Part shown: positions 1 to 62,074 of the stretch, one piece after another
How the letters are laid out: every line of letters starts with the position of its first letter
How positions within the stretch are numbered: position 1 is the stretch's first letter
Origin: Deltaproteobacteria bacterium
GTDB taxonomy: Bacteria; Desulfobacterota; Desulfobaccia; Desulfobaccales; 0-14-0-80-60-11
Assembly: GCA_016874915.1 (NCBI GenBank)
Contig: VGSW01000001.1
Location: 1-62,074 of the forward strand
Direction: 5' to 3'
DNA: 62,074 nt
Translations under genes and position numbers: made by a program
The notes under the pieces: generated by a model
Databases searched by the model: none
The model's input: the letters and a program-made list of their open reading frames with translations, nothing else
What the model was told of the DNA's origin: nothing

Positions 1-691
1 CCACCGGGTCCCCGGCCTCGAAGTCGATTTCCACGTATTGGGGCGTATCCGGGGCTTCCCGGGGATCCCGGGTAAGTTGGAACATGTCCGCCGGCGGCTC
101 CGCCCAGGGGTCTTCCAGGATGCCGCCCTCGAAGCTCAGGTGGAGCATATTCCGGTCCATGGAATAGGGCTTTCCCGTGGTCACCGGCACTGGGATGCCA
201 TGCTTTTGGGCATAGGCCACGCAGTCGGCCCGGCCCTGCAAATCCCACTCCCGCCAGGGGACGATGATCTTCAGGTCCGGGGCCAGGGCCTGGTAGGTGA
301 GCTCAAAGCGCACCTGGTCGTTGCCCTTGCCCGTGGCGCCGTGGGAGACCGCATCCGCGCCGGTGCGCCGGGCCACCTCCACCTGGCCCTTGGCGATAAC
401 CGGCCTGGCAATGGAAGTGCCCAAAAGATACGCCCCTTCATACAGGGCGTTGGCCCGGAACATGGGCCACACGAAGTCCCGGACGAACTCCTCTTTCAAG
501 TCCTCAATATAGACCTCGTCCGCGCCGGTGGCCAGGGCCTTGGCCCGAACCGGCTCCAGCTCCTCCCCCTGGCCCAAGTCCGCGGCAAAGGCCACCACCT
601 GGCATTTATAGGTCTCTTTGAGCCATTTGAGTATGACCGAGGTATCAAGGCCGCCGGAGTAAGCCAGGACGATTTTGTTGATATCAGGCAT
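1..691 (-). CDS. argG: argininosuccinate synthase, N-terminal part (gene continues past window start)
   Basis: Own minus-strand translation from ATG 691-689: [44 protein letters not shown]...[17 protein letters not shown]-loop SGGLDTS. Not in ORF track because no stop lies in the window. The + ORF 38..817 is its antisense shadow. Confidence 0.9.
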
Positions 692-754
692 GTGGTATTT
701 CCTGTAAATTTATTGCTGTATCAAGGTTATATTCAATGTCCTTTCTTAAACTTA

Positions 755-1429
755 TTATTCTTTAAGTTCGTTTACTCCAATATGTTTTCGAAAAGATTCC
801 TCAAGCACAGGAAATAACTCTTGAGACACTACCACTGCATTCCGCCAAGTTTCAATAAGCTCTTTAGCTACTACTGGCTCGAAATTACAAGGATCTCGAT
901 AGGAAACATCTTTAAATTTATAAGCAATGAACCATATTAAATACATTAGGCGCTCTATTGCATCAGCAGTATTCCTTGAAAAATAAATTCTTTTTTTCCT
1001 AAATTCATCAAACGCTGTTGAAGCCTGCTTGTAAATCTCTTTAGACTTAACTTCCTCATTTTTTTCACCTAAAGTTGCTTTAAAATACCTATCCCACTTG
1101 GTGGGGTCGCCATCTTTAGGTATTCGGTATTGCTCAAATAATTCCGTCTGTTCTTCAAGCAATTTGAAATGATAAACTAAAGAATGGATTTTGTCCAACA
1201 TACCAATAAGATCTGCAAAGACCTCATTAATCACCTGAGCTTGCTCGTCGTAAAGCTTACTGAATTGATAAAAATTCTTTTTATTAATTAATTCAATTTC
1301 CTGCTTGAATAACTCTGTGCGCTTCGTTAAAGCGCTCTCGAATAATTTTTTAAATATCCAGATAAATAACCCCAAAACTGTCCCATTAGTAACTACAGAG
1401 ATTGCAATAGTTGTCAAAATATCATTCAT
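755..1429 (-). CDS. hypothetical protein with N-terminal TM helix and helical domain; strongly AT-rich, foreign-looking
   Basis: ORF 755..1468 trimmed to MNDILTT (ATG at 1429), because the first 13 codons lie inside a palindromic repeat (1453-1511). One TM (ILTTIAISVVTNGTVLGLFIWIF). No family recognised. G+C visibly far below flanks. Confidence 0.5.
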   Translation of the reverse strand: MNDILTTIAISVVTNGTVLGLFIWIFKKLFESALTKRTELFKQEIELINKKNFYQFSKLYDEQAQVINEVFADLIGMLDKIHSLVYHFKLLEEQTELFEQYRIPKDGDPTKWDRYFKATLGEKNEEVKSKEIYKQASTAFDEFRKKRIYFSRNTADAIERLMYLIWFIAYKFKDVSYRDPCNFEPVVAKELIETWRNAVVVSQELFPVLEESFRKHIGVNELKE

Positions 1430-1573
1430 ATTATTTTGGCGACCAATTAGGTGTAAGGTGCCTCTCACGCACCAAAAGCCTTTTATTATTGGTGCGTGAG
1501 ACGCACCCTACATGCACAGGCTGGAAAGCCTGTGCCACCAGGGATTATCTTTCTTGCTGACCCCCGTCTCCGG

Positions 1574-2482
1574 TCATTTCAACATCCACTCCAACAATGC
1601 CTTCTGCAGGTGCAGCCGGTTCTCCGCCTGGTCCCAGGCCGCGGATTGGGGGCCGTCCAGGACTTCTGAGGTGATCTCTTCGCCCCGGTGGGCCGGGAGG
1701 CAGTGGAGCACGATGGCCTCGGGCCGGGCCAGTTTCAACAATTCAGCATTTACTTGATAAGGCTTGAAAATTTCCTTCCGAGCCGCGGCTTCGGCTTCCT
1801 GGCCCATGGAGGCCCAGACGTCGGTGTTGATGACGTGGGCCTGCTCCACGGCCCCCCGGGGGTCGGTCCCCAGGTGGATGGGCCGGCCTTCTTTCTGAGC
1901 CTGCTCCAAAAGGTCCATATCCGGCTCATAATCCATGGGACAGGCCAGGTAAAGGCTGAAATCCAGGTGCAGGGCCGCAGTGATCCAGGAGTTGGCCATG
2001 TTGTTACCGTCCCCCACCCAAGCCACCTTCAGCCCCGAAATTACCCCAAAGCGTTCCTGGATGGTCATGAGGTCGCTCAGCACCTGGCAGGGGTGGTGGG
2101 TGTCCGTGAGGCCGTTGATAATTGGAATAGTGGCGTGCCGGGCCAGGTCTGCCACGGTTTTCTGGGCGAAAGTGCGGATAACCACCGCGTCCACGTACCG
2201 GGACAGCACCCGGGCGGTGTCGCTGATGGGTTCCCCCCGGTCCAACTGGGTCTGGCCCGGGGCCAAGTAGATGCTGCTCCCCCCCAGTTGCGCCATGCCC
2301 GCCTCGAAGGACACCCGGGTGCGGGTGGAGGGCTTGTCAAAGATCATAGCCAGGGTTTTGCCCACCAGAGGCCGAAGGTTGTGGCCCTGGCGATGCAGGG
2401 CCTTGAGTTCCATGGCCCGCTTCAGGAGAGCTTCAATCTCTTCCCGGCTGAGGTCCAGTATGGTTAGTAAGTCTCGTTTCAT
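1574..2482 (-). CDS. argF: ornithine carbamoyltransferase
   Basis: 302 aa with STRTR, HPCQ and HCLPAHRGEE motifs, in an arg cluster. Confidence 0.92.
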   Translation of the reverse strand: MKRDLLTILDLSREEIEALLKRAMELKALHRQGHNLRPLVGKTLAMIFDKPSTRTRVSFEAGMAQLGGSSIYLAPGQTQLDRGEPISDTARVLSRYVDAVVIRTFAQKTVADLARHATIPIINGLTDTHHPCQVLSDLMTIQERFGVISGLKVAWVGDGNNMANSWITAALHLDFSLYLACPMDYEPDMDLLEQAQKEGRPIHLGTDPRGAVEQAHVINTDVWASMGQEAEAAARKEIFKPYQVNAELLKLARPEAIVLHCLPAHRGEEITSEVLDGPQSAAWDQAENRLHLQKALLEWMLK

Positions 2483-2500
2483 GTTGGTGCTCTTTATGTT

Positions 2501-2589
2501 GCGGTTCAGCGGTTCAGAGGTTCAGAACTTTTCCTTTCAACAGCAAACCCGCTAAACCGCCAGACCGCTAAACCGCCAACCGGCTGAAT
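2501..2589. repeat. palindromic element, family GCGGTTCAGCGG / AACCGCTAAACCGC
   Basis: Between argD and argF. Confidence 0.85.
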
Positions 2590-2601
2590 CTAAGACGCGC
2601 C

Positions 2602-3798
2602 CTACGGAAAAACTGCCTTAAACCCGTCGTGCAAAATCTCCAACGCCTGGTCCAGATCCCGGCGTTGGAGCACCAGGGGCGGCAGAAGCCGAATTATATT
2701 ACCCTGGGTGCAGTTAATCAAGAGACTCCGCTCCCGGCAGGCGTTCACCAGGGCCGCGCCTTCCTGGGTCAATTCCAGCCCCCACATGAGGCCCAAACCT
2801 CGTACCTCTTTGATGACCGGGAATTGTTTCTGGAGCCGCACCAGGCCCCGCCGTATGTATTTGCCCCGGGCCTTCACCGCGTCCATGAACTTGGGGCCGG
2901 TCATCTGGCGCAAGACCGCCAGGGCCGCGGCTGCGATCACCGGCCCGCCCCCGAAGGTGCTGGCGTGGGTGCCGGGGACCAAGGCTCCGGCCGCGTCTTC
3001 GGTGGCCAGGAGCGCGCCCATGGGGAGACCGTTGGCGATGCCCTTGGCCAGGGTCATGACGTCCGGCGTCACCCCGTAGTGCTCGTGGGCAAAGAGCTTG
3101 CCGGTGCGGCCCAGCCCTGTCTGCACTTCGTCGAAGACCAGGAGCAGGCCCTTTTCATCGCACAACCGGCGCAGTCCCGGCAAATAATCCGCATCCGGCA
3201 GGCAGACCCCGCCTTCCCCCTGGATAGGCTCCACCAGCACCGCGCAAACCCGCTCGTCCACGGCCCGGGCCGCGGCTTCCAGGTCATTGAAGGGCACAAA
3301 GATAAACCCCTCCAACAGCGGCTCGAAGCCCTTATGAAATTTCTCCTGGCCGGTGGCGGATAAAGCTCCGAGGGTGCGGCCATGAAAAGAATTATAGGTG
3401 CTGATGATGAAGTGCCGTCCCGGCCCGTATTTTTCGTGAGAGTAGCGGCGCGCCAGCTTGATGGCCCCTTCATTAACCTCCGCGCCGCTGTTGGCGAAAA
3501 AGACCCGGTCCGCGAAAGACAGGCGCACCAGCTCCTCCGCCAGCTCCGTCATGGGCGCGGTGTAGTAGAGGTTGGAGACGTGCACCAGCTTGGTAAGCTG
3601 CTCCGCCGCGGCCCGGGCCACTTCGGGATGGGCGTGGCCCAGGTTGCACACCGCCAGCCCGGCCACGAAGTCCAAATACTCCTTGCCGTCCGCGTCCCAC
3701 ACCCGGCAGCCGTCGCCCCTGACCAGCACCAGGGACTGCCGGCCGTAGGTCTGCATGACGACCTTATCCGCCCTTGTAATCCATCCCTGACTTAGCAA
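2602..3798 (-). CDS. argD: acetylornithine aminotransferase (class III PLP aminotransferase)
   Basis: 398 aa with SGAEVNEGAIKLAR, DEVQTGLGRTG and TLAKG (PLP Lys) motifs, between argB and argF. Start uncertain: TTG at 3798 or ATG at 3756. Confidence 0.87.
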   Translation of the reverse strand: MLSQGWITRADKVVMQTYGRQSLVLVRGDGCRVWDADGKEYLDFVAGLAVCNLGHAHPEVARAAAEQLTKLVHVSNLYYTAPMTELAEELVRLSFADRVFFANSGAEVNEGAIKLARRYSHEKYGPGRHFIISTYNSFHGRTLGALSATGQEKFHKGFEPLLEGFIFVPFNDLEAAARAVDERVCAVLVEPIQGEGGVCLPDADYLPGLRRLCDEKGLLLVFDEVQTGLGRTGKLFAHEHYGVTPDVMTLAKGIANGLPMGALLATEDAAGALVPGTHASTFGGGPVIAAAALAVLRQMTGPKFMDAVKARGKYIRRGLVRLQKQFPVIKEVRGLGLMWGLELTQEGAALVNACRERSLLINCTQGNIIRLLPPLVLQRRDLDQALEILHDGFKAVFP

Positions 3799-3817
3799 GT
3801 CTCCTCTCCCTTGGTGG

Positions 3818-4864
<1,047 letters not shown>

Positions 4865-4865
<1 letters not shown>

Positions 4866-6175
4866 TATAAAATATACCGGCTCAAATCCTCATCCTCGAT
4901 CAAATTCGCCAGCCGGTCCCGCACATATTCCGCGGTGATGGCGATTTCCTGCTCCTCTAATTCCGGGGCTTTGAAGGAGATATCCTCCAGGAGCTTTTCC
5001 ATTACCGTGTGCAGGCGCCGGGCCCCGATGTTCTCCGTGCGCTCATTGACCCGGGTGGCCAATAGGGCCAGTTCCTTCACCGCATCCGGCCGGAAATTGA
5101 GGCGGATGCCCTCGGTGGCCATGAGGGCGTGGTACTGCTTGATGAGGGCGTTTTCCGGCTCGGTCAGGATGCGCTCAAATTCCTCCGGCCCCAGGGAGTT
5201 CAGCTCCACCCGGATGGGGAAGCGGCCCTGCATCTCGGGGATCAGATCCGAGGGCTTGGACATGTGGAAGGCCCCGGACGCGATGAACAGGATATGGTCG
5301 GTCTTGACCATGCCGTACTTGGTGTTCACCGTGGTGCCTTCCACGATGGGCAGCAGGTCCCGCTGCACCCCCTCCCGGGAGACGTCGGGCCCCCGGGTGT
5401 GGTTCCGCCCCGCGATTTTGTCGATTTCGTCCAGGAAGATGATGCCGTTCTGCTCCACCTTGCGCCGGGCCTCTTCCACCACCCGGTCCATGTCGATGAG
5501 GCGCTGGGATTCCTCTTGCAAGAGCAATTCCCGGGCTTCGGCGATCTTGACCCGCCGGGTCTTGGTCTTCTGGGGAAAGAGGCCCCCCATCATTTCCCGC
5601 AAATTGAATTCCATTTCCTCCATGCCACTGGCGGAAAAAATCTCCACCACCGGGGCCAGGCGCTGGGTGACCTCCATGTCCACGTAGCGGTCATCCATCT
5701 TCCCGTCCCGGAGCATGGCACGGAGCCGGTCCCGGGTGGCGTCCTTCTCGCCTTCCGGAGGCGGGGCGCTGCCGGGCAGGAGCAGGTCCAGGAGCTTTTC
5801 CTCCACCGCCTCCTGGGCCTTGGCCTGGACCTTGTCCCGTTCCGCGGCCTTAACCATGTTCACCGCCAACTCCATCAGGTCCCGGACCATGGACTCCACG
5901 TCCCGGCCCACGTAGCCCACCTCGGTGAACTTGGTGGCCTCGATCTTTAAAAACGGCGAATGGGCCAGCTTGGCCAGCCGCCGCGCAATCTCGGTTTTGC
6001 CCACCCCGGTGGGCCCGATCATGATGATGTTTTTGGGCGCGATCTCATCCCGCAGCTCCTCGGGAACCTGCTGGCGCCGCCAGCGGTTGCGCAGGGCGAT
6101 GGCCACGGAGCGCTTGGCGTTCTCCTGGCCCACGATGTATTTATCCAACTCCGCCACGATCTCCCGGGGCGTCAT
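4865..6175 (-). CDS. hslU: ATP-dependent protease ATPase subunit HslU
   Basis: [17 protein letters not shown], Walker [29 protein letters not shown] 4865..6220 trimmed to ATG 6175, by analogy with the E. coli N-terminus MSEMTPREIV. Confidence 0.93.
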
Positions 6176-6245
6176 ATGATCCCCGGAACCGGGGAGACTC
6201 TTAGTCAACAACGTAATCAAAATTACTTGCCCCCTTTATGAAATT

Positions 6246-6356
6246 GAGAGCTCTGCAAAGATCCATTTTGTCATTCTGAGCGAAGCGAAGAATCTAGATT
6301 CTTCGGTCGCTTCGCTCCCTCAGAATGACAAATTAGGCGACTTTTGCAAAGGTTCT
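6246..6356. repeat. palindromic element, family GTCATTCTGAGCGAAGCGAAGAATC
   Basis: Inner inverted repeat 6270-6329, flanked by CTGCAAAG/CTTTGCAAA-type outer arms. Between the cyt-b-like gene and hslU. Confidence 0.85.
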
Positions 6357-6360
6357 TAAA

Positions 6361-6978
6361 TTATTCCTGGAGAAAAAACATCCGGCGCCATTTTTGCTCT
6401 CCCCAGATAGCATCCAGGAGGGTTCCGGTGAGGTGTAAACCCAGAAAAATGGGGATGAGCCAGTTGCCGATTTCGTGAATTTCTTTAATGAAGTGGATCA
6501 CTCCCCTGGCCTTAGCCCCAGGCTGCAGATAATTAAATAACAAACTTCCGGTTAGCGCCTGCCAGGAAAATACCAAGAGGCCGAAACCCTGGATTAGACC
6601 CTTGAGACCATCATGAGAGGCCCGCTGAGGAAGCTGGAGCCGGAGCAGAGTCTGGACGTCTTCCCAGGCGGCCAGGAGCCTTTCCCGGGTGCAGGGGCAC
6701 CAATCGGCGAAGCGGACGTTGGAAGGACCCCAAAAGCCATACATAATCCGCAGTAGCAGAAACAGGCTCACGGTGATGCCCAGCCAACTGTGCACCGTGA
6801 ATCCCAGGTGCGAGGCTTTTTTATAGTCCCCGGCTAATTCTCCGGTGACCCAGGCCAGGGTGCCCCCCACCGCCAGACCTGCGTGCAGAAACCGGGTGAA
6901 GTAATCGAACTCCTCTTTTGGCGTGAGGTCAGGGCTATTGTCAATTATCGGTGCGCTCTTCTGATTTACAAGTTCCAT
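6361..6978 (-). CDS. cytochrome b561 / Ni-hydrogenase b-type cytochrome-like membrane protein
   Basis: About 205 aa with four predicted TM helices. Conserved His residues in helices (FLHAGLAV, HSWLG, IHEIGNW, GLHLTG). Family call by pattern only. Confidence 0.45.
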   Translation of the reverse strand: MELVNQKSAPIIDNSPDLTPKEEFDYFTRFLHAGLAVGGTLAWVTGELAGDYKKASHLGFTVHSWLGITVSLFLLLRIMYGFWGPSNVRFADWCPCTRERLLAAWEDVQTLLRLQLPQRASHDGLKGLIQGFGLLVFSWQALTGSLLFNYLQPGAKARGVIHFIKEIHEIGNWLIPIFLGLHLTGTLLDAIWGEQKWRRMFFLQE

Positions 6979-6999
6979 GGTTACCAATCCTTTGATGAA

Positions 7000-7030
7000 G
7001 CTGTCAGCCGTCAGCTGTCAGCTTTCAGCT
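7000..7030. repeat. tandem heptamer block GCTGTCA/GCTTTCA
   Basis: gctgtcagccgtcagctgtcagctttcagct. Confidence 0.75.
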
Positions 7031-7115
7031 AAAAGCAAAAATGTAGGGTGCGCATTGCGCACCATGTAAGGTGGGAACGGCCCACTAGATTTCCATTTCA
7101 ATCATTGTCAATAAT

Positions 7116-7967
7116 TTAACTCAAAAGCCATTCTGCAAAGTTATCAAATTTGAATATTTTTCTCTTTCTATGACCAAACTGATTTATTAAGCGAAGCATA
7201 TTGTATTGGGCTATGTCTGAAGTTATAAACATATCACAATTTGTTAAATAAATTGATTGCTGTGTGTCAATGCTTCCAGGGTTTTTTGATTTAGCAAAAT
7301 TACTTGTTTTTATTGACCTTACAAACATACCGTATGTCATACTAGAAAGGAAAAATCTCCAATGTTCAGAATAGTTAATTAATCTAATAGCAATTTCATT
7401 ATCAACAGGCGAATCAGTCCCTTTATTTGCGAGATTAGATACAAAACTAGCAATAAATTCTAGTCTGTATTGTTTGATAAGTTTTGAAAAATTAGAGGCA
7501 AAAGAATGTCGCTCCATTTTGGATAAATTAGATATTTTTTCCTGCCAAAGATTTCGGCCATTATCATGAATACTTTGGTACCATTGCTCTTGATTTTTCT
7601 TCCATCCTATTATCTTGCTATATGCCTCTCCATCTATTTGCTCTGGCTCATTTAACATGACCCAAACTTCATCCCATTCTTCCCCGATTGAATAATTCAT
7701 ATCCGGAGCCCAAACCCTAACTGCCTCTACTGCCCACTTGAGAATTTCATTAGGCATTGCCATTGGACGATAATTACCACCAATATCTTTAGCCAATCCA
7801 AGCAGGCCTTCTCTACGTTCTTTCGTGGATTCTGAGGCAAGTTCAACAACATTAAAGATGCTTAAAAATACTTCTCCTTTAATTTTAATTGCATTTTTCA
7901 ATTCCAACATCTTTGCAGAATCATATAGTCTATTTATAGCACTCGTATCTAAATAAAATGTTTTCAT
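7116..7967 (-). CDS. PIN-like domain protein with large internal insertion; AT-rich
   Basis: ORF 7116..7991 trimmed to ATG 7967 (MKTFYLDTSAINRLYD). The N-terminal YLDTS, VVELAS, and C-terminal IDTQQSIYL...MFITSD resemble the four acidic PIN positions, separated by about 190 extra residues. G+C far below flanks. Starts 11 nt after the hslV stop. Confidence 0.45.
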   Translation of the reverse strand: MKTFYLDTSAINRLYDSAKMLELKNAIKIKGEVFLSIFNVVELASESTKERREGLLGLAKDIGGNYRPMAMPNEILKWAVEAVRVWAPDMNYSIGEEWDEVWVMLNEPEQIDGEAYSKIIGWKKNQEQWYQSIHDNGRNLWQEKISNLSKMERHSFASNFSKLIKQYRLEFIASFVSNLANKGTDSPVDNEIAIRLINYSEHWRFFLSSMTYGMFVRSIKTSNFAKSKNPGSIDTQQSIYLTNCDMFITSDIAQYNMLRLINQFGHRKRKIFKFDNFAEWLLS

Positions 7968-7977
7968 TTGATTTAGG

Positions 7978-8532
7978 TTACAACTCCTCAATAATTATCT
8001 CGGAATTCGTATAAACGCACAACGACGCGGCGATAGTCATGGCCTCCCGGCAGATGTCCGCGGGGGTGAGGTCCGTATGGGCCATCAAGGCCCGGGCCGC
8101 GGCCAGGGCGTAAGGCGCGCCGGAGCCGATGGCCATCACCCCTTCGTCGGGCTCGATGACGTCCCCGGTGCCGGAGATGAGGAAGGCCGCCTCTCCGTCC
8201 ACCGCCAACAGCAGGGCTTCCAGGCGCCTCAGGACTTTGTCGGTGCGCCAGTCCTTGGCCAGTTCCACCACCGACCGGGTGAGGTTCCCCCGATGGGCCT
8301 CCAATTTCCCCTCTAATCTCTCGAACAGGGTGAGGGCGTCGGCGGAGGCCCCGGCAAAGCCCACGATGATCTTGCCGTGATAGAGTTTGCGCACCTTCTT
8401 GGCCCGGTGTTTCATCACCATGTCGCCCAGGGACACCTGGCCGTCCCCGGCCACCGCGACTTTATTTCCCCGGCGCACCATGAGGATGGTGGTGCCGCGC
8501 CATTTATCATTAGAAAAGCTCATGGGTTTCAT
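7978..8532 (-). CDS. hslV: ATP-dependent protease subunit HslV
   Basis: 184 aa. GTTILMVRR (Thr nucleophile after a short propeptide), [23 protein letters not shown]. Confidence 0.92.
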
Positions 8533-8537
8533 ATCCT

Positions 8538-8628
8538 GGGGTTAAAAGGTTAAAAGGGGAAAAGGTTAAAAGGGAAATAAATAATTTTCTTCAAAACCCG
8601 TTCCCCCCATCCCTTTTTCCTTTTTCCA
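8538..8628. repeat. palindromic element, family GGTTAAAAGGGGAAAAGG
   Basis: Related copies at 8911-8955, 13786-13860, 29613-29706, 48095-48125, 48231-48262 and 48605-48680. Confidence 0.8.
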
Positions 8629-8706
8629 ATAAGCCTGGGGCCTGCCTGCCCAGCCCGGCAATTGGGAATATGTCAACTTCGGCGGGCACGGAGGCCCGCC
8701 CCACCG

Positions 8707-8800
8707 AACTAAAAAATTCCATTAGCACAGGCCTCTGGCCGGTGGACACCGCCAGTTCCTGCCAGTGACTTTCACACAGGCTGGAAGCCTGTGCCACTCA
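8707..8800 (-). repeat. double-hairpin element, family GGCACAGGCTTCCAGCCTGTG
   Basis: Its reverse complement reads gtggcacaggcttccagcctgtg-N28-ccggccagaggcctgtgctaatggaattttttag. Confidence 0.82.
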
Positions 8801-8934
8801 GGGTAGTATTAACCTCGTCCCCAAGCTGTGCTTGGGGGCTCACTGATGACCAAAGCTTAGGTTTGGATACATTCGCCTTCCCAAGTACAACCTGGGAACG
8901 AGAAGACCTTTTTGCCCTTTAACCTTTTCCCCTT

Positions 8935-9846
8935 TTAACCTTTTAACCCTTTCCCCCTGGGGTGGGTTTTATCATATTCCTCCATCAAATAATCCAGGTT
9001 CAAGTGCAAATATCTCTGCGTACTGGAAATGGACGCGTGCCCCAGCAGTTCCTGCACCGTCCGCAAATCCGCCTTGCCTTCCAAAAGGTGGGTGGCAAAG
9101 CTGTGGCGGAGGCCGTGGGGGGTCAGCCCCGGGCTCAAGCCCGCCAGCCGGGCCCATTTGTCCACGATGCGCGCCACCCCCCGGGTGCTGAGCCGCGCTC
9201 CGGCGGGGTTGACAAACAGGGCGGCTTCCTCGGGGCGGCCTTTTTTCTCTACGAGCTGGCGGCGCAAGGGCAAATACCCGGCCAAGGCCTTCCGGGCCGG
9301 GTCGCCCAGGAAAGCCAGCCGCTCCTTGGCCCCCTTGCCCCACACCCGCAGCACCCCTTCGTTAAAATCCAGGTCTTTCAAATCCAGCCCGGCCAACTCC
9401 GACAGCCGCAAGCCCCCGGAGTAAAAGACCTCCAGGATGGCCCGGTCCCGCCGGGGGCCGAAGCCGTCGCCTTGGGCCTCGCTTACCAAATGGAAAACCT
9501 CGTCCACCGACAAAAAGTGGGGGAGCGGCTTCTCCAGCTTGGGGCTGGGGGCCAGCCGGGCCGGGTTCTGGGTGACTACGCCCCGGCGCTGCAGAAACTT
9601 GAAAAAGGAGCGCAGGGCCGAGAGCTTCCGGGCCACCGTGGTCTTGCTCCGTCCTTTCAAAGCCAGGGCCAGGAAGGCCCGCACGTCTTTATAAGTCGCG
9701 TCCCCCAGGGAACGGTCTTCGCCCCCGTAATAGAAATCCAGAAACTGGGCCAAATCCAGGCGGTAGTTCCGCAAGGTGTGGGCCGACATCTGCCGCTCCA
9801 CCCGCAAGTATTGCAGGAAATCCTCCAGAAGTTCCCAGCCGCCCAT
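8935..9846 (-). CDS. xerC: tyrosine recombinase XerC/XerD family
   Basis: 303 aa. SAHTLRNYRLDL, HGLRHSFATHLL, LLGHASISSTQRYLH. Its position upstream of hslVU is typical for xerC. Confidence 0.82.
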   Translation of the reverse strand: MGGWELLEDFLQYLRVERQMSAHTLRNYRLDLAQFLDFYYGGEDRSLGDATYKDVRAFLALALKGRSKTTVARKLSALRSFFKFLQRRGVVTQNPARLAPSPKLEKPLPHFLSVDEVFHLVSEAQGDGFGPRRDRAILEVFYSGGLRLSELAGLDLKDLDFNEGVLRVWGKGAKERLAFLGDPARKALAGYLPLRRQLVEKKGRPEEAALFVNPAGARLSTRGVARIVDKWARLAGLSPGLTPHGLRHSFATHLLEGKADLRTVQELLGHASISSTQRYLHLNLDYLMEEYDKTHPRGKGLKG

Positions 9847-10019
9847 CTTGTTCCCGGGGAAAATAATTTCTGAAAACTAAAATATTATCATCAAATTACC
9901 ACAATGCAAAAAAATTGTCCGTTTGAAATCAATGATTTCCAAAGATTGTATGCCGTTAAGGCAATTTTAATATTGAATATATTCCAAAGAATTTCTATAT
10001 CTTTTATTGTCCATAATCT

Positions 10020-10160
10020 GAGGCTGTTGCAAAAGTTTGCCAAGTGGGAATAGTAGGTTATTTTTTGTCATTCTGAGCCACCCTTGGTGGCGAAGAATCT
10101 AGCCCCTTCGCTTCGCTCAGGGTGACAATTTGGGATTATTCGGGTAATTGCAACAGTCTC
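10020..10160. repeat. palindromic element, same family, with GAGRCTGTTGCAA outer inverted repeats
   Basis: Inner 10067-10126 (gtcattctgagcc...cgcttcgctcagggtgac). Outer gaggctgttgcaaaagt / gtaattgcaacagtctc. Confidence 0.85.
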
Positions 10161-10181
10161 AACCTAGAAAGGAGCTTTTTA

Positions 10182-10616
10182 ATGACCCTGGCGGAAGAAA
10201 TTAAGCAAATGGTGGCGGACCTCTCACCCGAGCTCACGGAAAAGAAAGGGATTTACACTCTGGAATGCCTGGTGGCGGAACGGAAAGCCTTTCTGTCCCG
10301 GAAAAAACTGGTGTACCAGGCCCGGTTCCGCATTGACGAGGCCAACAAGGAACTCCGCTTCACCGAAATGCTGAAGGAAACCGGATGGGGGCTTTCCGGC
10401 GGCGACATCGACACCAGCCCGGGCTTCGGCTTCAAGAAAGAAACCTACAAGCAGGGGCTGGGGGGCCGGGAAGGAACCATCGAAGAGCAATCCCGTTTGT
10501 TCGGGGAAAAGTATGAATATAAATGGGACCTGGGCCGAATCCGCCGGGAAGTGGAAGCCAAGGCCAAAGAAAAGGGGTACACTTTCACCTATGTGGTCAC
10601 CGGCGTGGGGTTGTAG
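10182..10616 (+). CDS. hypothetical protein
   Basis: ORF 10122..10616 trimmed to MTLAEEIKQ (ATG 10182, preceded by aaaggag). The upstream 20 codons lie in a repeat element. No family recognised. Confidence 0.45.
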   Translation: MTLAEEIKQMVADLSPELTEKKGIYTLECLVAERKAFLSRKKLVYQARFRIDEANKELRFTEMLKETGWGLSGGDIDTSPGFGFKKETYKQGLGGREGTIEEQSRLFGEKYEYKWDLGRIRREVEAKAKEKGYTFTYVVTGVGL

Positions 10617-10622
10617 TCGTTT

Positions 10623-10691
10623 CTCTTTTGGCGCGCTGGAGTCTTGGCTGGATATTTAATTTCTCCCGCCAAGACGCCAAGGCGCAAAGAA
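10623..10691. repeat. palindromic element with CTTGGCG-type sub-repeats
   Basis: ctcttttggcgcgctggagtcttggc ... gccaagacgccaaggcgcaaagaa. Confidence 0.75.
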
Positions 10692-10758
10692 TCATGGGGA
10701 AATTATTGAGAGGCCCCGTTCTCTATGGTAATATTACTACCGGGGAAGTGGGGGAGAA

Positions 10759-11922: not shown

Positions 11923-12026
11923 AGGCAGTTTTCGGTTTTCGGTCTTCGGTTTTCGGTTAAAAGGATTGGGATTATTGAAGGATTGCAATTTGGGTTTGCA
12001 GCATTTGAGAAGGAAACCGGCATAAA

Positions 12027-12785: not shown

Positions 12786-12786
12786 C

Positions 12787-13773: not shown

Positions 13774-13785
13774 GACCTTCCGGCG

Positions 13786-13860: not shown

Positions 13861-13906
13861 CTGAGAGTATTTGGCCTTATGAGGCCGTTTTGAAAAAGGT
13901 AGTTCT

Positions 13907-14167: not shown

Positions 14168-14180
14168 AAAGGGTGAAAGT

Positions 14181-48585: not shown

Positions 48586-48707
48586 TCTATAATCTCTTAA
48601 CTACTTATCCTTCTCCTTTTCGCCCTTCCGCTATAACTTCTTCCCCCTTTTAACCTTTTCACCCTTTCCCGCCGGTGTTATTTTATAAATAAATAAGAGG
48701 ACCCTCA

Positions 48708-49754: not shown

Positions 49755-49923
49755 ACTGTTGTTTTCGGTTTTCGGTAAAAAGATTTCCACCTTCTAGTTT
49801 GTCTGCTCATGTGATCCGTCGCTCCCATTTCCAGCCAGATTTTTCCCCCTCCCGCCCGGAATAATGATAATATGAGGGCCGGTATCAAGCCGGTTATACT
49901 TCAAACCACTTTTGTTCAAAGAT

Positions 49924-50547: not shown

Positions 50548-50627
50548 CCGTGAGCAGTAAGCAGTGAGCAGTGGAGTTTATCCTCCGCCAATAACTAACT
50601 GCTAACTGCTCACTGCTCACTGCTAAC
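50543..50627. repeat. palindromic element, family GTGAGCAGTGAGCAG
   Basis: gttagccgtgagcagtaagcagtgagcagtg ... taactaactgctaactgctcactgctcactgctaac. Contains the stop codon of the ParB-like gene. Confidence 0.85.
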
Positions 50628-50645
50628 TGTGAACGGAGTGAACTT

Positions 50646-51568: not shown

Positions 51569-52036
51569 ATGAAAGGTGAAATCCGCGGGTCCTTTTGGCT
51601 GTGGGTCTCCTTCGTGACCTGGGTGGTGTTGGCGGGGACCGCGCCGGCGGGGGCGGAAGTCCGGGAGGCCAACGCCGGCCGGGGCGGGGAAACCCTGGAC
51701 CTCAACTCCCTGGCGGCCCCGGGACGGATCACCATGGTGGAGTTTTACAGTCCCTACTGCCCGCCGTGCCTCAGCCTGGCGCCGCTGCTGGAGCAACTGG
51801 CCGCCAGACGCTCCGACCTTTCTATCCGGAAGGTCAACATTAACCGTCCCGAGATCAAGGGCATCGACTGGAAGTCCCCCTTGGTGCGCCAATACAGCAT
51901 CCGTTCGGTGCCGTATTTCGTGATCTTTGACCCCAAGGGAAAAGTCGCGGCCCATGGCAAAGCCGCAACCCGGCAACTGGAGGACTGGCTTACGGAAGCC
52001 AGACTTTTAAACATGGGGGAAAAGGGGAAAAAGTAA
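51569..52036 (+). CDS. secreted thioredoxin-like protein
   Basis: Signal peptide. MVEFYSPYCPPCLSL (CPPC). Confidence 0.75.
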   Translation: MKGEIRGSFWLWVSFVTWVVLAGTAPAGAEVREANAGRGGETLDLNSLAAPGRITMVEFYSPYCPPCLSLAPLLEQLAARRSDLSIRKVNINRPEIKGIDWKSPLVRQYSIRSVPYFVIFDPKGKVAAHGKAATRQLEDWLTEARLLNMGEKGKK

Positions 52037-52138
52037 CCAATAATCAGTAAGTAATCAGTAATCAGTAATCAGTAATCAGTGATCAGTGATCAGTCGATTT
52101 CCAATTGGTTACTGGTCACTGATTACTGGTCACTGATT
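52036..52138. repeat. palindromic element whose left arm is an (AATCAGT)n heptamer array
   Basis: Six contiguous heptamers at 52053-52094, plus one at 52042. Right arm actggtcactgattactggtcactgatt. Confidence 0.88.
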
Positions 52139-52147
52139 AAAGGAGTA

Positions 52148-52564
52148 ATGGGCATGGGCAAAATTAGTTGGCACCTTTTACTCTTGGTCGCGGCGATAAT
52201 GGGTTTGGTTTTAAGTTGCGGTCTGCCTTCCGGCGCCGCGGCGCCTCCCCTTACCGCGGCCGCGGCCCAGCAGACCATAGACAATTGGAATCCCCAGTAT
52301 TGTAAGGTCGCGGAATTTTATGGCTTTTACAAGTCCGAGGCCGGCCCGGAGCAGGTGGCCTACGTCTTGATGGCCAACCCCAGCGACCGGGCCCAGAAAC
52401 CCGCGGTCTATGCCGCCCGTTTTCAACTCCTTACCTCAAAGGACGGCCAGCAACGCTGGTTTTTGACCAGCCTGGTGACCCACGGCTCGGGCCTGACCCG
52501 CCGCCAGGGCTGGGATAATCTCATCATTCCGGTTAAGGAGGGAGGGGCCTCCTCTTCCCGGTAA
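52148..52564 (+). CDS. hypothetical lipoprotein
   Basis: ORF 52079.. trimmed to MGMGKISWHLLLLVAAIMGLVLSC (lipobox). Upstream codons are a heptamer repeat. Confidence 0.5.
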   Translation: MGMGKISWHLLLLVAAIMGLVLSCGLPSGAAAPPLTAAAAQQTIDNWNPQYCKVAEFYGFYKSEAGPEQVAYVLMANPSDRAQKPAVYAARFQLLTSKDGQQRWFLTSLVTHGSGLTRRQGWDNLIIPVKEGGASSSR

Positions 52565-54200: not shown

Positions 54201-54273
54201 GTTAGATAGTGAGCAGTGAGCAGTTGGCTGTTAGCAGTTAGTAGCTAAAACTCAAAACTCGAAACTCAAAACC
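54201..54273. repeat. GTGAGCAG block followed by AAAACTC heptamer block
   Basis: gttagatagtgagcagtgagcagttggctgttagcagttagtagct + aaaactcaaaactcgaaactcaaaacc. Confidence 0.8.
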
Positions 54274-55679: not shown

Positions 55680-55680
55680 A

Positions 55681-55758
55681 GTCAGGTTTCAGGTTTCAGG
55701 TTTTAGGTTTTAGGTTTTACTGACCACTGACCACTGGCCACTGATCACTGACCACTGG
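55681..55758. repeat. GGTTTCA/GGTTTTA heptamer block followed by CTGACCA/CTGATCA block
   Basis: gtcaggtttcaggtttcaggttttaggttttaggtttta + ctgaccactgaccactggccactgatcactgaccactgg. Confidence 0.85.
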
Positions 55759-55767
55759 CAACAAGAC

Positions 55768-56562: not shown

Positions 56563-56632
56563 TTAACCACCAAGACACCGAGACACAAAGGTTCACCAAG
56601 GGAATCTCTGTGTCTTGGTGTCTCGTGGTTAA
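56563..56632. repeat. palindromic element, family TTAACCACCAAGACACCAAGACAC
   Basis: Between the convergent methyltransferase and hemerythrin genes. Followed by a T-run. Confidence 0.85.
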
Positions 56633-56657
56633 ATTTTTTCTGCCCCATGACGGAACG

Positions 56658-57368: not shown

Positions 57369-57503
57369 TATTCGGTTTCCCTCCCCCCTCTAAAACCAGT
57401 TTCCGGTTTTCGGCTAAAACCTAAACCTTGAACTTTGAACCTTGAACTTAAATTTTAGCCCCAGACCCCTACTCCCTATCTATTCCCTACTCCTATTCCC
57501 TAA

Positions 57504-57937: not shown

Positions 57938-58152
57938 ACTCCTTCCTCCTCTTAATGGTAGATACCCGGCTTCCCCCCCGTCGAGTGAACGAGTAAAAGC
58001 CGCCCAAACTCCTTTCTGCCGCTATAATATAGTTCGGCGCCAAGGAAAGTCAACTTAATTATTTTAGGCCCCTAAAAAATTCCTTTATTTAAAGAAATAA
58101 GGAGCCTGTAATTGGGGACGGTTTACCTGAGGAACGCCCGTAGTAAATCAGC

Positions 58153-58378
58153 TTATGATTGTTTAAGTGGTTTTGGGTACACATATCTTTTGGTCCATTG
58201 AAAAGGCGCGGCCTTGGGGTTATATGACTCGGTAAGATTATCAATGGCTTCACGGACTTGGTGCGGATGGGTGAAGTTTCCTCCCTGCAAAGCGCCTCGT
58301 TCCAAGATGCTGAACCAGATCTCGCATTGGTTCAGCCAGGAGGCATAGGTGGGGGTATAGTGAAAATGGACCTTGGGG
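58153..58378 (-). pseudogene. C-terminal fragment of an IS630-family DDE transposase
   Basis: Own translation: PKVHFHYTPTYASWLNQCEIWFSILERGALQGGNFTHPHQVREAIDNLTESYNPKAAPFQWTKRYVYPKPLKQS*. Typical IS630 C-terminus including the catalytic E (NQCE). The N-terminal ~270 codons are missing, replaced by a repeat. Confidence 0.78.
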
Positions 58379-58640
58379 CAGGGTGGACATAACCCGATGA
58401 AAAATGTCCATCTTGTCCACCTTGGGAGGGGGCGAAAAAAAGCTGGTTTTTGTCCATCTTGTTCATCTTGGGAGAGCTACATAAAACTTAATCGGTTCAA
58501 CCGACAAAAAATTAGTTTTTTCACCCTCGGCCCCACCTGATCATCGGCACCTTTTGCGTCTTCGTGCCGGAAGAGCTGGTGCTGGCCGCGGATGCCGTCT
58601 GTGTGGGCCTTTGCGCCGATCTGGAGGCTATTAAAATATC

Positions 58641-58776
58641 TATCAGGCTGTTAAAAAACCTTTTTTTTCGTCATCCTGAGCGAAGCGAAGGATCTCAACT
58701 ACATGAAAAGACGAGATTCTTCGCTTCGCTCCGAATGACAATGTTGATATTTTGCTAGTTTTTCAACAGCCTGATA
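58641..58776. repeat. palindromic element, same family; complete copy next to a half copy
   Basis: Outer tatcaggctgttaaaaaac / gtttttcaacagcctgata. Inner gtcatcctgagcgaagcgaag...cttcgcttcgctccgaatgac. A half copy at 58779-58835 matches the right half of the 10020 element. Confidence 0.85.
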
Positions 58777-58956
58777 GACCCTTCGCTTCGCTCAGGGTGA
58801 CAATTCGGGATTATTGCAGTAATTGCAATAGTTTCAAGTTGGCCCATTGGGACAGGCGAGGCTTGGCGGGCACGGAGGCCCGCCCCACCAATGTAAGGGT
58901 TTCATGACGGAAAGCTGCCGGCGCAGGCTGCAGTGGAGCGGAAAACTGAAAACTTT

Positions 58957-60014: not shown

Positions 60015-60073
60015 TGGGGGGAGGGCCAGGGAGCAACGCTCCCTGCCCTCCCCCAACAACAACTTTTCGAAGC
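60015..60073. repeat. palindromic element, same family as 25307
   Basis: ggggggagggccagggagcaacgctccctgccctcccccaacaacaacttttcgaagc. Confidence 0.82.
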
Positions 60074-60319: not shown

Positions 60320-61720
60320 ATGCCTGGTTGGGCGCGTCTCGGGGGATTGTTCTTAGGACTGCTGTTGGCGCTGGCGCCGGCGGTGGCCAACGCCGCGGAG
60401 GGTCCGGTATTAACCCTGCCGCAACTCATCAACATGGCCTTGAAATTCAGTCCGGAAGTCAAGGCCAGCAAAAGCGAAGTGAACCTGGCCAAGGAACAGC
60501 GCAACGAAGCCCACGGTTACCGCTATCCGCAGTTTGACGCTACCGTGATGACCGGGGTGGTGCCTAACGCCCGTCTGCCCATTGTCGCAGGAGTAGGCAA
60601 TCCCCTGGTTTATCCCGACCCCAAAAATAAGCTGCACGGCGTCAACATTTTTGGCCGCATGGAATTCAGCGTGGTCCAGCCTCTTTACACCTTCGGCAAG
60701 ATCGCACTCCGGGAAGAAGCCGCCAACAAAAACATCAAGGTGAAAGAACTCGGGGTGGACGCCAAGAAAGGGGAAGTGATCTTACAGGTCTCCGAGGCAT
60801 ATTACGGCCTCATCCTGTCGGAGCAGGGCAAGGACGCCGTGCGGGAGGCCCGGTCTTACCTCAACGACACCCGGGAGCGCATTGACCGTTTGCTCCGGAT
60901 CAATTCGCCCAATGTCCGGGAGACGGACCGCTATCGCCTGGCGGTTTATGAAGGCGGAATTGAAAAATTCGGGGCACAGGCGGAAGAAGGAGTCAAGGTG
61001 GCCTATGCGGCCTTGAAGGCCCTAACCGGCTCCGAACAAAATTTCAAAGTGCCCACAGATCTCCCTGGCCCCACAGCGCCCCAGCCCCTGGACCACCACA
61101 TCCGCAATGCCTTGGATCTGCGGCCCGAGTTCAAACAGCTTAAAGAGGGCCTGGCCGCCCGGCAACTGTTGGTGGACGCCGCCCGGGCCGACCGCTATCC
61201 TTCCTTCTTCCTGGCGGTGGTGGGTCAGTTGGCCGGCGCCCCGGGCCGCAAGCACATACAGGACCCATACATCATCGACTATTTCAATGATAGATACGCC
61301 TTCCCCTTTGTGGGCGCCAAATGGCACTTCGACTTCGGCATTCTGAAAGCCAAGGTCAACCAGGCTAAAGCTGAGCTGGAACAGCTCCAGTACACCGAGA
61401 AGACCGCGCTCATGGGCATCCCGGTGGAAGTGGCCCAGGTTCACGGCAAAGTCCAGGAAAATTACAAGGCCTCGATAGGATTGGAGAAATCTTACGTCAA
61501 CGCCCGCCGCTGGCTGATCACCGCGTTCAGCAACTTCGACATGGGCATCGGGAAGTTGGAGGACATCTTCAATGCCTTTGAAAGGTACGGGTTCTCCCGG
61601 GGCGACTTCTTGATGGCCCTGTATGAATACAACGTAAACGCCGCCAAGCTGAACAAGGTCACCGGCGCGTTCCGCCGCTCCCTGCCGGCAGAAGCTGTCG
61701 CGCTCCCGGCCAAGAAGTAG
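60320..61720 (+). CDS. TolC-family outer membrane efflux protein
   Basis: 466 aa. Signal peptide. Two-repeat OEP pattern (LTLPQLINMALKFSPEVKA..., LDLRPEFKQLKEGLAA...). Confidence 0.78.
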   Translation: MPGWARLGGLFLGLLLALAPAVANAAEGPVLTLPQLINMALKFSPEVKASKSEVNLAKEQRNEAHGYRYPQFDATVMTGVVPNARLPIVAGVGNPLVYPDPKNKLHGVNIFGRMEFSVVQPLYTFGKIALREEAANKNIKVKELGVDAKKGEVILQVSEAYYGLILSEQGKDAVREARSYLNDTRERIDRLLRINSPNVRETDRYRLAVYEGGIEKFGAQAEEGVKVAYAALKALTGSEQNFKVPTDLPGPTAPQPLDHHIRNALDLRPEFKQLKEGLAARQLLVDAARADRYPSFFLAVVGQLAGAPGRKHIQDPYIIDYFNDRYAFPFVGAKWHFDFGILKAKVNQAKAELEQLQYTEKTALMGIPVEVAQVHGKVQENYKASIGLEKSYVNARRWLITAFSNFDMGIGKLEDIFNAFERYGFSRGDFLMALYEYNVNAAKLNKVTGAFRRSLPAEAVALPAKK

Positions 61721-61748
61721 GGAATAGGGGTTAGTTAGGGACAATGCT

Positions 61749-61924
61749 GTTCACTTAAGCACCAAGAGATGAAGCGATTTCATTTCTCTTGTCATTCTGA
61801 GGGAGCCGAAGGCTACCGAAGAATCTCTAAATACGAGATGCTTCGCTTCGCTCAGCATGACAAGAAGACAATAAAATGTAGAGTGGGCACTGCCCACCAA
61901 TTCCTTAGAATCGCTTAAGTGAAC
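61749..61924. repeat. palindromic element, same family, with TTCACTTAAGC outer arms
   Basis: Inner 61791-61861. Outer ttcacttaagc / gcttaagtgaa. Confidence 0.8.
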
Positions 61925-62027
61925 CGTATTGGGGTTAGGGAGTAGGGATTAGTACTACTACGTTAGATAATATCTCCCATATCGCCCATGATAGGCCAAC
62001 CATTGGATATTACTGACAATCAGTTTT

Positions 62028-62074
62028 GTCACCCTGAGCCGTAGGCGAAGGGTCTAGATTCTTCGCTTCGCTCA
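62028..62074. repeat. palindromic element, same family, truncated by window end
   Basis: gtcaccctgagccgtaggcgaagggtctagattcttcgcttcgctca. Confidence 0.8.

Follow-up and report, generated by a model that had tools for sequence, protein, structure and literature searches.

Intergenic hairpins of short tandem units in a Desulfobaccales contig: many families of one design, with a putative role in the transcript

Records of hairpins made of heptamer-type repeats in cyanobacteria, Xanthomonas, and Geobacter go back, to our knowledge, 35 years, but their origin and function have been left unexplained. Here we describe the repeats of this kind in a 62,074-nt stretch of DNA (the window) from a deltaproteobacterium of the order Desulfobaccales (assembly GCA_016874915.1, contig VGSW01000001.1). 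Among the described systems, the short tandemly repeated repetitive (STRR) sequences of cyanobacteria include the hupS-hupL hairpin, for which roles in transcript stability, translational coupling or termination have been proposed (PMC2670836). GGGAATC heptamer arrays of Xanthomonas form convergent inverted pairs in 70–75 cases, and slippage was invoked for them (Rehm et al., 2015, PMC4692102). Geobacter metallireducens has numerous multicopy intergenic families, including 4–5 tandem heptanucleotides (GGACCGG, MTYCTGA); its heptanucleotide repeats, lying between and within genes, are drawn in supplementary figures with loop-back and strand switch (Aklujkar et al., 2009, PMC2700814). Marine Beggiatoaceae carry direct repeats of one unit, TAACTGA, inverted in 1 of 170 sets (MacGregor, 2015, PMC4679880). 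Mrazek (2007), as summarized in the latter paper, found heptamers to be the commonest long simple-sequence repeats (LSSRs) and proposed polymerase slippage as the cause. For repetitive extragenic palindromes (REPs), their doublets (REPINs) and bacterial interspersed mosaic elements (BIMEs), roles in mRNA stabilization and termination have been proposed (PMC3733652; PMC3116915).

The intergenic repeats of the window are a mixed population of tandem-unit arrays and hairpins, one family of MITEs (miniature inverted-repeat transposable elements), and REP-like hairpins with larger palindromes. The dominant class is long simple-sequence repeats of the STRR/LSSR type with 7–10-nt units, mostly arranged as two inverted arrays. 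A rough gene map was drawn from GC content at third codon positions, Pfam hits, and Joint Genome Institute (JGI) gene calls, and comprised 52.2 kb of coding and 9.9 kb of intergenic DNA. Tandem Repeats Finder (periods 7, 8, 10 or 11) detected 50 arrays, 44 of them intergenic and 6 coding, which corresponds to 4.44 vs. 0.115 arrays per kb, a 39-fold difference. In 100 dinucleotide-preserving shuffles of the gaps, only 0.9 ± 0.9 arrays were found (maximum 4). Coding arrays had periods that were mostly multiples of three; intergenic periods were 7 (the commonest, 21 arrays), 8 (17), 9 (7), and 10 (2). When clustered at ≤1 mismatch, 48 intergenic arrays fell into 20 unit families. About 17 elements were inverted array pairs folding into 18–50-bp hairpins with fold z-scores of −2 to −15, and about one-third of the arrays were one-armed. 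An array was present in 25 of the 42 gaps of at least 70 nt and a strong inverted repeat in 17; 32 of them had at least one of the two. The set thus shows what defines LSSRs and STRRs: head-to-tail units beyond chance with heptamers leading, variation in unit number, a mainly intergenic position, and inverted pairing. The tandem-unit hairpins belong to this already known type, in a set unusually rich in number and diversity. At 80 gatB loci of other bacteria (1.25 Mb), array density was 0.18 per kb vs. 0.81 here (4.5-fold), and the density of partnered arrays was 0.03 vs. 0.24 per kb (8-fold). Among the matches listed for GatB in GTDB species representatives, the best reached 75% identity. Clear tandem-unit hairpins were also present at loci of Desulfobacterales, Geobacteraceae, and Acidobacteriota, so the design is not unique to this organism. 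Rfam covariance models gave no match in the window at gathering score; at E ≤ 1, there were only two spurious miRNA-precursor matches, both to long hairpins.

A sequence-only reading of the same DNA had reported about twenty families of tandem-armed palindromes, a count that our clustering reproduces, and all motifs that it listed were found within about 0–30 nt of their given positions. The one exception is 55719, where the array has units of ACTGACC, a 2-nt variant of the named ACTGATT. The enrichment of intergenic over coding DNA, proposed there as a check, was clear. Its statement that nearly every gap longer than 70 nt is filled was too strong (32/42), and its description of arms with a reverse-complement partner applies to the inverted pairs and not to the one-armed third of the arrays. 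Several of the further families that it took for tandem-unit elements are GTAG-type REP-like hairpins or larger palindromes.

On balance, and with moderate confidence, we favor the reading that the hairpins are RNA-level operon punctuation and terminators, made by slippage plus some mobility. The first line of evidence is their placement. Hairpins filling co-directional gaps start −13 to +20 nt from the upstream stop codon, so that several of them overlap it, and end 5–20 nt before the next start, the stem thereby stopping just short of the Shine-Dalgarno sequence. Where gaps are longer, the hairpin is close to one gene end only. Both elements in convergent gaps (16449–16564 and 56563–56635) have T-rich flanks on both strands, and a sense-strand T-run was found among co-directional hairpins only at 27740. 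A GC-rich stem-loop with a U-tract is present at 16449–16564, 56563–56635, and 27740–27866 and absent at the other co-directional hairpins. The inner hairpins of the elements in convergent gaps were the top hits of a terminator scan, with that at 16479–16526 the best, and we regard the element 16449–16564 as a candidate bidirectional terminator.

One-armed arrays follow an orientation rule. In nine cases, an array of the GTTTTCG type (one of them AGGTTTY at 55684) follows a stop codon or terminator and is sense-oriented; the count covers the window and two of the related sequences, which are labeled L084 to L099 (here L084 and L085). In at least five cases, a sense-oriented CGAAAAC or AAAACTC array immediately precedes a start codon, for example that of livG, of gatB, of the gene at 54276, of an IF-2B-family gene (L084 and L085), and of the livG genes of L096 and L099. 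In the window, the array at 27954–27978 lies 12 nt before livG, that at 54247–54272 lies 3 nt before its gene, and that at 42702–42718 is at gatB. RNA folding was more stable for the sense than for the antisense strand in 12 of 14 hairpins (p = 0.013), but composition-matched shuffles give part of this bias and the variant of one hairpin in L088 reverses it; therefore, we do not rely on this comparison.

Stems of 18–50 bp are in the size range cleaved by RNase III, and REP elements stabilize upstream mRNA in Escherichia coli. Paired arrays would act in the transcript. Inside operons, an imperfect hairpin of 18–50 bp reaching from the stop codon to just before the Shine-Dalgarno sequence may protect upstream 3′ ends or serve as a processing site, perhaps as an RNase III substrate, and its position would leave the next ribosome-binding site unpaired. 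In convergent gaps, paired arrays with flanking A/T tracts would end transcription both ways. One-armed GUUUUCG arrays could provide U-rich tails after stops and terminators, and one-armed CGAAAAC/AAAACUC arrays could provide A-rich unstructured leaders just before start codons. Selection would maintain a hairpin or array of one kind or another in each gap, the sequence of which would be replaced again and again by slippage, homogenization, and occasional insertion. We propose that selection for any hairpin, together with a fast mutational supply, accounts for many families sharing one design. The tandem-unit arrays and hairpins of the window are as follows, with the strand given where one was assigned:

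2501–2582: paired 8-mer hairpin (GCGGTTCA ×3 / AAACCGCY ×3.7), argD-argF spacer.
3817–3903: paired 7-mer hairpin (GTTGACA ×4 / AACTGTC ×4.6) between argB and argD, with a right arm overlapping the stop of argB.
4786–4867: paired 8-mer hairpin (AGCGGGTT ×4.4 / AAACCGCT ×3.1), hslU-argB spacer.
6999–7030, plus strand: one-armed AGCTGTC ×4.6 array.
8540–8627: purine/pyrimidine pair GGTTAAAA ×4 / CCTTTTT, weak hairpin; distal partner at 8906–8952.
10637–10690: CGCCAAGA-type paired hairpin.
13787–13844: GGGAAAAA / TCTTCCC pair, weak.
15528–15543, plus strand: half element, TCTTGGTG ×2 with GGTTAAAT end.
16449–16564: 10-mer-armed hairpin around a 20-bp GC hairpin (16479–16526), convergent genes; free energy −85, z −15.
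17959–17974, plus strand: ACTGGCC ×2.3 array.
25432–25463, plus strand: one-armed GTTTTCG ×4.6 array.
26568–26638: CACAGATT 9-mer hairpin, from the base after the livH stop to 13 nt before the livM start.
27740–27866: CACCAAGA 8-mer hairpin with inner 15-bp hairpin (27787–27820) and T-rich tail.
27954–27978, plus strand: leader array of CGAAAAC ×3.6, the end of which is 12 nt from the start of livG.
28750–28905: AGCTGAA-type pair with long loop, livG-livF spacer.
29616–29705: GGTTAAAA ×6 / CCTTTTCC hairpin after livF; ortholog kept in L096 and L099.
30268–30320: CACAGATT hairpin between asnC and the aminotransferase gene; its ortholog in L096 carries 3 units in each arm together with a new hairpin inside.
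34779–34894: AGCGGGTT / CCGCCAAA pair, divergent gap upstream of polA.
38862–38882, plus strand: TTTTCGG ×3, directly after a conserved terminator; also in L084.
41176–41247: CACAGATT hairpin, spacer of gatB and the IF-2B-family gene; GTTTTCG arrays instead in L084 and L085.
42702–42718, minus strand: leader array of the AAAACTC type, immediately before the start of gatB; L084 has the ortholog.
48231–48276, plus strand: AAAAGGYG 8-mer array; distal inverted partner at 48646–48667.
49761–49776, plus strand: GTTTTCG ×2.3 after a small open reading frame (ORF).
50542–50634: GTGAGCA / CTAACTG 7-mer hairpin, overlapping the stop of a ParB-CE-domain gene by 6 nt and ending 11 nt before the start of a Band_7 (SPFH-domain) gene.
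52032–52139: AATCAGT ×9.4 / ACTGRTY ×4.3 hairpin after a thioredoxin gene.
54208–54272, plus strand: adjacent arrays GAGCAGT/TAGCAGT ×4.9 and AAAACTC ×3.7, ending 3 nt before the start at 54276.
55684–55757, plus strand: adjacent arrays AGGTTTY ×5.1 and ACTGACC ×5.6.
56563–56635: CACCAAGA hairpin, convergent genes; T-tracts on both strands.
57424–57502, plus strand: AACCTTG ×3.4 and CCCTAYT arrays.

The second line of evidence is the comparison with sister lineages, which shows that arrays grow, shrink, and homogenize in place by whole-unit slippage and concerted change. L096 and L097 are 99.75% identical over 11.6 kb, with identical LivM, and differ by only two multi-nucleotide indels, one of 14 nt (two GAAACTY units) and one of 7 nt (one GTCAGGT unit). 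In L093, which is 85% identical in the flanking genes, the gap orthologous to 55680–55767 keeps both arrays; AGGTTTY has decreased from 5 to about 3 units, and ACTGACC ×5.6 is replaced by about four units of ACTGATT, with the same two substitutions in each unit. The argD-argF hairpin of L088 (argF about 88% identical) has four units instead of three, and GCGGTTCA is changed to GCGGTTTG (CA>TG) in each of them. Its partner arm is also altered, and the sense hairpin is stable in both versions (−40.6 and −48.2 kcal/mol). Concerted change of units together with change in their number means that the “families” can be drift products of slippage and homogenization.

Two side observations concern these relatives. 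L088 corresponds to window positions 1928–14775 and is identical to it from about 2700 to 14775 except for one substitution (4689), while the last ~80 nt of argD, the argD-argF hairpin, and argF are only about 88% identical. This switch of identity beside a repeat reflects either a breakpoint of recombination or an assembly that is chimeric between strains. In L092, the gap orthologous to 55680–55767 contains more than 50 consecutive G residues and then a C-rich tract (L092:11400–11480), which may be an artefact of assembly or sequencing.

The liv operon was compared between the window, L096–98, and L099, with LivM of the window 86% identical to that of each relative. Its five gaps contain:

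livH-livM: CACAGATT hairpin in the window; GTTAGCA hairpin in L096–98; GTTAGCA hairpin in L099.
livM-livG: CGAAAAC leader in the window; GAAACTC leader in L096–98; two AAAACTG/AAAACTC units in a 21-nt gap in L099.
livG-livF: AGCTGAA pair in the window; ACTGGCC hairpin in L096–98; pair of GTAG REPs in L099.
livF-asnC: GGTTAAAAGG/CCTTTTCC hairpin in the window; the same family with changed unit number in L096–98 and L099.
asnC-aminotransferase: CACAGATT hairpin in the window; in L096–98, CACAGATT with each arm longer by one unit and a new hairpin inside; the L099 contig ends earlier.

Four of the five gaps hold a hairpin or an array of at least three units in all sampled lineages; in the fifth, L099 has only the two leader units. 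This pattern suggests that selection keeps some hairpin or array in each liv gap.

The third line of evidence concerns mobility. A family of elements of 92–106 nt, one arm of which is a GTTTTCG array, is present in four copies, all with TACC...GGTA ends and a matched direct TAA/TTA (TWA) target-site duplication (TSD), for which the null expectation is 0.23% per element. A strict filter for terminal inverted repeats missed these elements, and a relaxed one was used in the TSD search. By their ends and duplications, they are identified as a MITE transposing with a 3-bp TWA target duplication; duplications of the 3-bp TNA/TWA kind are typical of some IS5-family groups. The copies, a diverged relative, and the repeats adjoining the copy in polA are:

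31683–31788, plus strand: MITE copy 1 (TACC...GGTA, GTTTTCG ×5.4 arm), TSD TAA.
38950–39047, plus strand: MITE copy 2, TSD TTA.
48137–48228, plus strand: MITE copy 3, TSD TAA.
36172–36270, minus strand: fourth MITE copy, inside polA, 99 nt plus 3-bp TSD TTA.
11925–12023, plus strand: diverged MITE relative (GTTTTCG ×4.4 plus module) in the dGTPase-exonuclease spacer, 63% identical to the 91-nt D4 reference copy; no matched TSD.
36044–36171, plus strand: 27-nt ×4.7 in-frame repeats (GGGGAGGGGGTTAAAGGAAGCC type), polA linker.

Together with its duplication of 3 nt, the 99-nt copy in polA amounts to 102 nt; it is therefore in frame and adds about 34 residues. When these 99 + 3 nt are excised, the 27-nt repeat unit at this place is whole again; polA of L084 and L085 lacks the copy and represents the empty site. 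The copies are 92, 98/99, and 106 nt long, i.e., they differ in steps of about 7 nt, which means that the arm also slips. Another copy, about 83% identical, is located in L096 (2262–2377) at a non-orthologous site between thiC and a gene for 207 aa. The right end of the element with its TSD reads TTGCAT-N16-TGGTATAAY (31757–31791, 39016–39050, 48197–48231) and resembles an outward extended −10 promoter; a consensus promoter scan did not call it. PolA of this clade (gene at 34941–37892) has a variable low-complexity linker with 27-nt repeats encoding 9-aa LKGEGVKGS-like units, the DNA of which resembles the intergenic GGTTAAAGG family; the protein has 983 aa here vs. about 890 aa in typical homologs. 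It is identical to an NCBI protein named as DNA polymerase I of a Deltaproteobacteria MAG, and its nearest named relatives belong to MAGs of Desulfobaccales and Thermodesulfobacteriota.

The sequence-only reading had argued for a common generating or selecting mechanism rather than one mobile family. A generating process is indeed visible in the whole-unit indels between the two nearly identical strain contigs; a selecting one is so far suggested by the liv gaps, which hold a hairpin or array while the family changes. The comparison of orthologous gaps that it called for showed positions often kept, with unit number, sequence, and family changing. The repeats indeed do not form a single REP family; mobility is nevertheless proven for one of the families (four copies with TSDs, one of them in polA), and the same unit families recur at non-orthologous gaps of relatives.

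Several observations weigh against the role that we propose for the hairpins. Terminator-pattern hits in the window were not enriched over shuffles, most co-directional hairpins have no U-tract, the L088 variant of the argD-argF hairpin is more stable on the antisense strand, and we infer function from position only. The livM-livG gap of L099 is only 21 nt long, and one orthologous gap of L092 is without an array; in this relative (~70–78% nucleotide identity), some orthologous gaps are empty or contain other elements, and the unit families recur elsewhere. Fast turnover means that any requirement for a hairpin is loose. Finally, identical units (GAGCAGT, GTTTTCG, CACAGATT) occur at non-orthologous sites of genomes that are ~15–30% diverged, so in-place slippage alone is insufficient, and this recurrence is the main point for more mobility than has been demonstrated.

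The best surviving alternative is that all tandem-unit hairpins are non-autonomous mobile elements, similar to MITEs, REPs or palindrome-associated transposable elements (PATEs), with transposases encoded elsewhere and acting in trans; the units would be subterminal transposase-binding repeats, and gap filling would show where insertions are tolerated. We consider this unlikely, though a serious possibility. One family is a proven MITE with an insertion within a gene, unit families are shared with non-orthologous gaps of L084, L085, L092, and L096, copies have non-periodic termini or loop motifs in common (TCCACAGATT...AATCTGTGGA, ATTTAACC...GGTTAAAT, CCTTGGTGAA), and true GTAG REP-like elements coexist with the hairpins. 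Against this, no TWA or TTAA duplication flanks 15 of the 17 paired hairpins, the other two being bounded by palindromic TTAA (ambiguous), and the 13 paired hairpins that were tested had no flanking direct repeat above chance, so that only the GTTTTCG-armed family fits the definition of a MITE. The tandem-unit hairpins have no common tag. The sequence GGTTAAA(T), found at several array ends, was considered as such a tag and rejected, being confined to related families. No transposase was found in the 62 kb; Pfam searches of the window’s proteins revealed no RAYT (Y1 transposase) or IS200/IS605 domain, in agreement with the earlier observation. Moreover, orthologous arrays demonstrably change where they stand, up to the conversion of one “family” to another.

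It is also possible, but in our view rather doubtful, that the arrays are functionless, neutral by-products of slippage-prone intergenic DNA and palindrome-templated correction. Rapid turnover with replacement of families between lineages and whole-unit indels within a population agree with this explanation, as does the finding, put down to polymerase slippage, that in many bacteria no class of long simple-sequence repeats is more frequent than heptamers (Mrazek, 2007, as summarized in PMC4679880). Neutral origin alone is difficult to reconcile with the precise placement from stop codon to Shine-Dalgarno sequence, with the orientation rule of the one-armed arrays, with the persistence of a hairpin or array of at least three units in four of the five liv gaps despite changes of family or class, and with the argD-argF hairpin, which stays stable though both arms changed between strains.

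As to the origin of the design, a dedicated sequence-directed generator (a transposase, an HUH nuclease or a primase-like enzyme) instead of generic slippage seems improbable to us; such an enzyme would stutter or nick every 7–8 nt at a short core, maybe ACTG/CAGT, with one arm copied into the other. ACTG/CAGT occurs in the unit of 14 of the 42 heptamer arrays of the clade (window, L084–L094) vs. 2 of 33 in other phyla, counts that include arms and orthologs and are not independent, so that we treat the core as a lead only. The core (NNNCAGT, as in AATCAGT, GAGCAGT, GGTCAGT, TGACAGT, and others) was unchanged in the shift from ACTGACC to ACTGATT. We take the NNNCAGT core of many heptamers here to be common to STRR1 (CCCCAGT) and STRR3 (CAACAGT). 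If a generator existed, it would provide a mechanism common to cyanobacterial STRRs and the TAACTGA repeats of Beggiatoa and would account for identical units at non-orthologous gaps of diverged genomes.

Very little likelihood is left for the arrays as DNA-level binding sites of nucleoid-associated or other proteins, a hypothesis with a precedent in Geobacter metallireducens (integration host factor, IHF, or HU; PMC2700814). Periodic repeats are typical of cooperative binding sites, and unit sequences are conserved across diverged genomes; however, there are about 20 different unit sequences, the 7–10-nt periods do not fit the helical phase, the units of a persisting site change in concert from one sister lineage to the next, and the elements are tied to stop and start codons, not to promoters. 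An assembly artefact or chance low-complexity feature is refuted even though the window comes from a metagenome assembly, since JGI assemblies of three other samples (3300020222, 3300020074, 3300020109) match it without gaps at 99.96–100% identity over 11.6–23 kb and reproduce its repeats, the 44 arrays stand against 0.9 in shuffles, and relatives show the same design.

The REP-like hairpins and larger palindromes form a separate part of the population:

1453–1538: REP-like set, inverted pair of GTAR-tagged hairpins and a GCACAGGC hairpin.
7043–7085, plus strand: two GTAG/GTAA-tagged REP-like hairpins.
8681–8798: GGCGGGCACGGAGGCCCGCC hairpin and inverted pair of GCACAGGC hairpins (REPIN-like).
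17828–17926: inverted pair of TAGTGGCACCGGCC hairpins (REPIN-like).
48416–48509: inverted pair of GGCACAGGC hairpins (REPIN-like).
6270–6329: GTCATTCTGAGCGAAGCGAAG 60-nt palindrome; more copies at 10067–10126, 58670–58803, 61791–61861, and from 62028 onward.
25308–25385: CTTCGAAAAGTTGTTGTTGGGGGAGGGC palindrome; second copy, inverted, at 60016–60072.

REPIN-like inverted doublets have the form GGCACAGGC...GCCTGTG, and the larger palindromes include a GGGGGAGGGC type. The GTAG/CGTC tag is found only in a separate subset at 1453–1511, 7043–7085, and 61878–61898. No common tag flanks the tandem-unit hairpins, and their span is 53–156 nt, compared to 20–40 bp for REPs; for both reasons, they fall outside the REP definition, and the 20 unit families did not collapse into one ordinary REP family. 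A literature search by sequence string for the non-tandem families returned nothing relevant. The stop codon TAG of argD is supplied by the GTAG tag of a REP-like hairpin (2590–2605), which is truncated in the window and complete in L088; livG of L099 likewise ends on a GTAG REP tag (L099:7825–7835). REP-like hairpins also edge two low-GC islands on the minus strand (755–1468 and 7116–7991; GC 0.35–0.36 vs. ~0.59 overall), which are inserted in the arg and hslVU gene clusters. Their ORFs of 237 and 291 aa were possibly acquired horizontally; these and other unannotated ORFs had no PADLOC, NCBIfam or Pfam match.

The repeats also generate false ORFs, as the sequence-only reading had stated. A JGI gene call of 51 aa (27732–27887) spans the CACCAAGA hairpin and is an annotation error caused by the repeat. 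The ORF at 10122–10616 starts within a dispersed 63-nt repeat, and the longest-ORF starts of two genes reach into hairpins (52079–52159 and 41158–41193). No convincing gene was found in the 1 kb at 57938–58956, which contains two TGTCCATCTTGTYCAYCTTGGGAG direct repeats (58405–58474) and a cluster of GTCATCCTGAGCG palindromes. Within it, the short ORF 58153–58305, which resembled the C-terminus of an IS630-type transposase, was considered as a remnant of such a gene and was rejected, having no profile support in PADLOC, NCBIfam or Pfam. In practice, such repeats yield false ORFs and false N-terminal extensions, and they can sit in essential genes (polA) with the frame intact.

The value of this set is in comparative evidence: slippage polymorphism, concerted unit change, retention of hairpins with replacement of families, and, in polA, a MITE that keeps the frame. 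Since the same metagenomes sample sister species and co-occurring strains, slippage rates, concerted change, replacement, and retention can be measured from reads; matching metatranscriptomes of the lake samples could map RNA 3′ ends. The pattern of the liv operon, with position kept and sequence replaced, is an argument for a possible need of bacteria for a hairpin of one kind or another between cistrons, no matter where it comes from.

Among known systems, bacterial MITEs derived from insertion sequences resemble the GTTTTCG-armed element in being non-coding, multicopy, and about 100 nt long, with short terminal inverted repeats (TACC...GGTA) and a 3-bp TWA TSD, and in being tolerated in frame within a gene; the element described here differs in having a slippage-variable heptamer array as one arm. 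REPs, REPINs, and BIMEs are intergenic hairpins as well, often inverted doublets downstream of genes in co-directional or convergent gaps (PMC3733652; PMC3116915), and sometimes lie inside replication or repair genes. The GTAG-tagged REP type is matched by a subset here (GTAGGGTGCGCATTGCGCACC and others), whereas the tandem-unit hairpins have periodic arms and no GTAG/CGTC tag, and the window has no RAYT gene. Geobacter metallireducens, also a deltaproteobacterium, has numerous heptanucleotide families, with unit sequences that differ from those found here; they were taken for regulatory RNAs or for sites of IHF/HU, and the interpretation did not draw on comparative evidence. The TAACTGA repeats of Beggiatoaceae are sense heptamer arrays a few nt before starts, as are the CGAAAAC/AAAACTC leaders, and their tandems can be read as (TATCAGT)n, i.e., with the CAGT core; in the window, the unit TAACTGA itself is absent and inverted pairs dominate. 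Intergenic heptamer arrays with gene context kept between species and varying length and sequence are known from Xanthomonas (PMC4692102), where a single G-rich family was read as G-quadruplex-forming, in contrast to the many non-G-rich families here, mostly without such potential. Cyanobacterial STRRs share tandem 7-bp units, an intergenic position, and a foldable hairpin between co-transcribed genes (PMC2670836). The set described here belongs to another phylum, has units of 7–10 nt and about 20 families in 62 kb, and consists mostly of explicit inverted pairs that reach from the stop codon to the ribosome-binding site.

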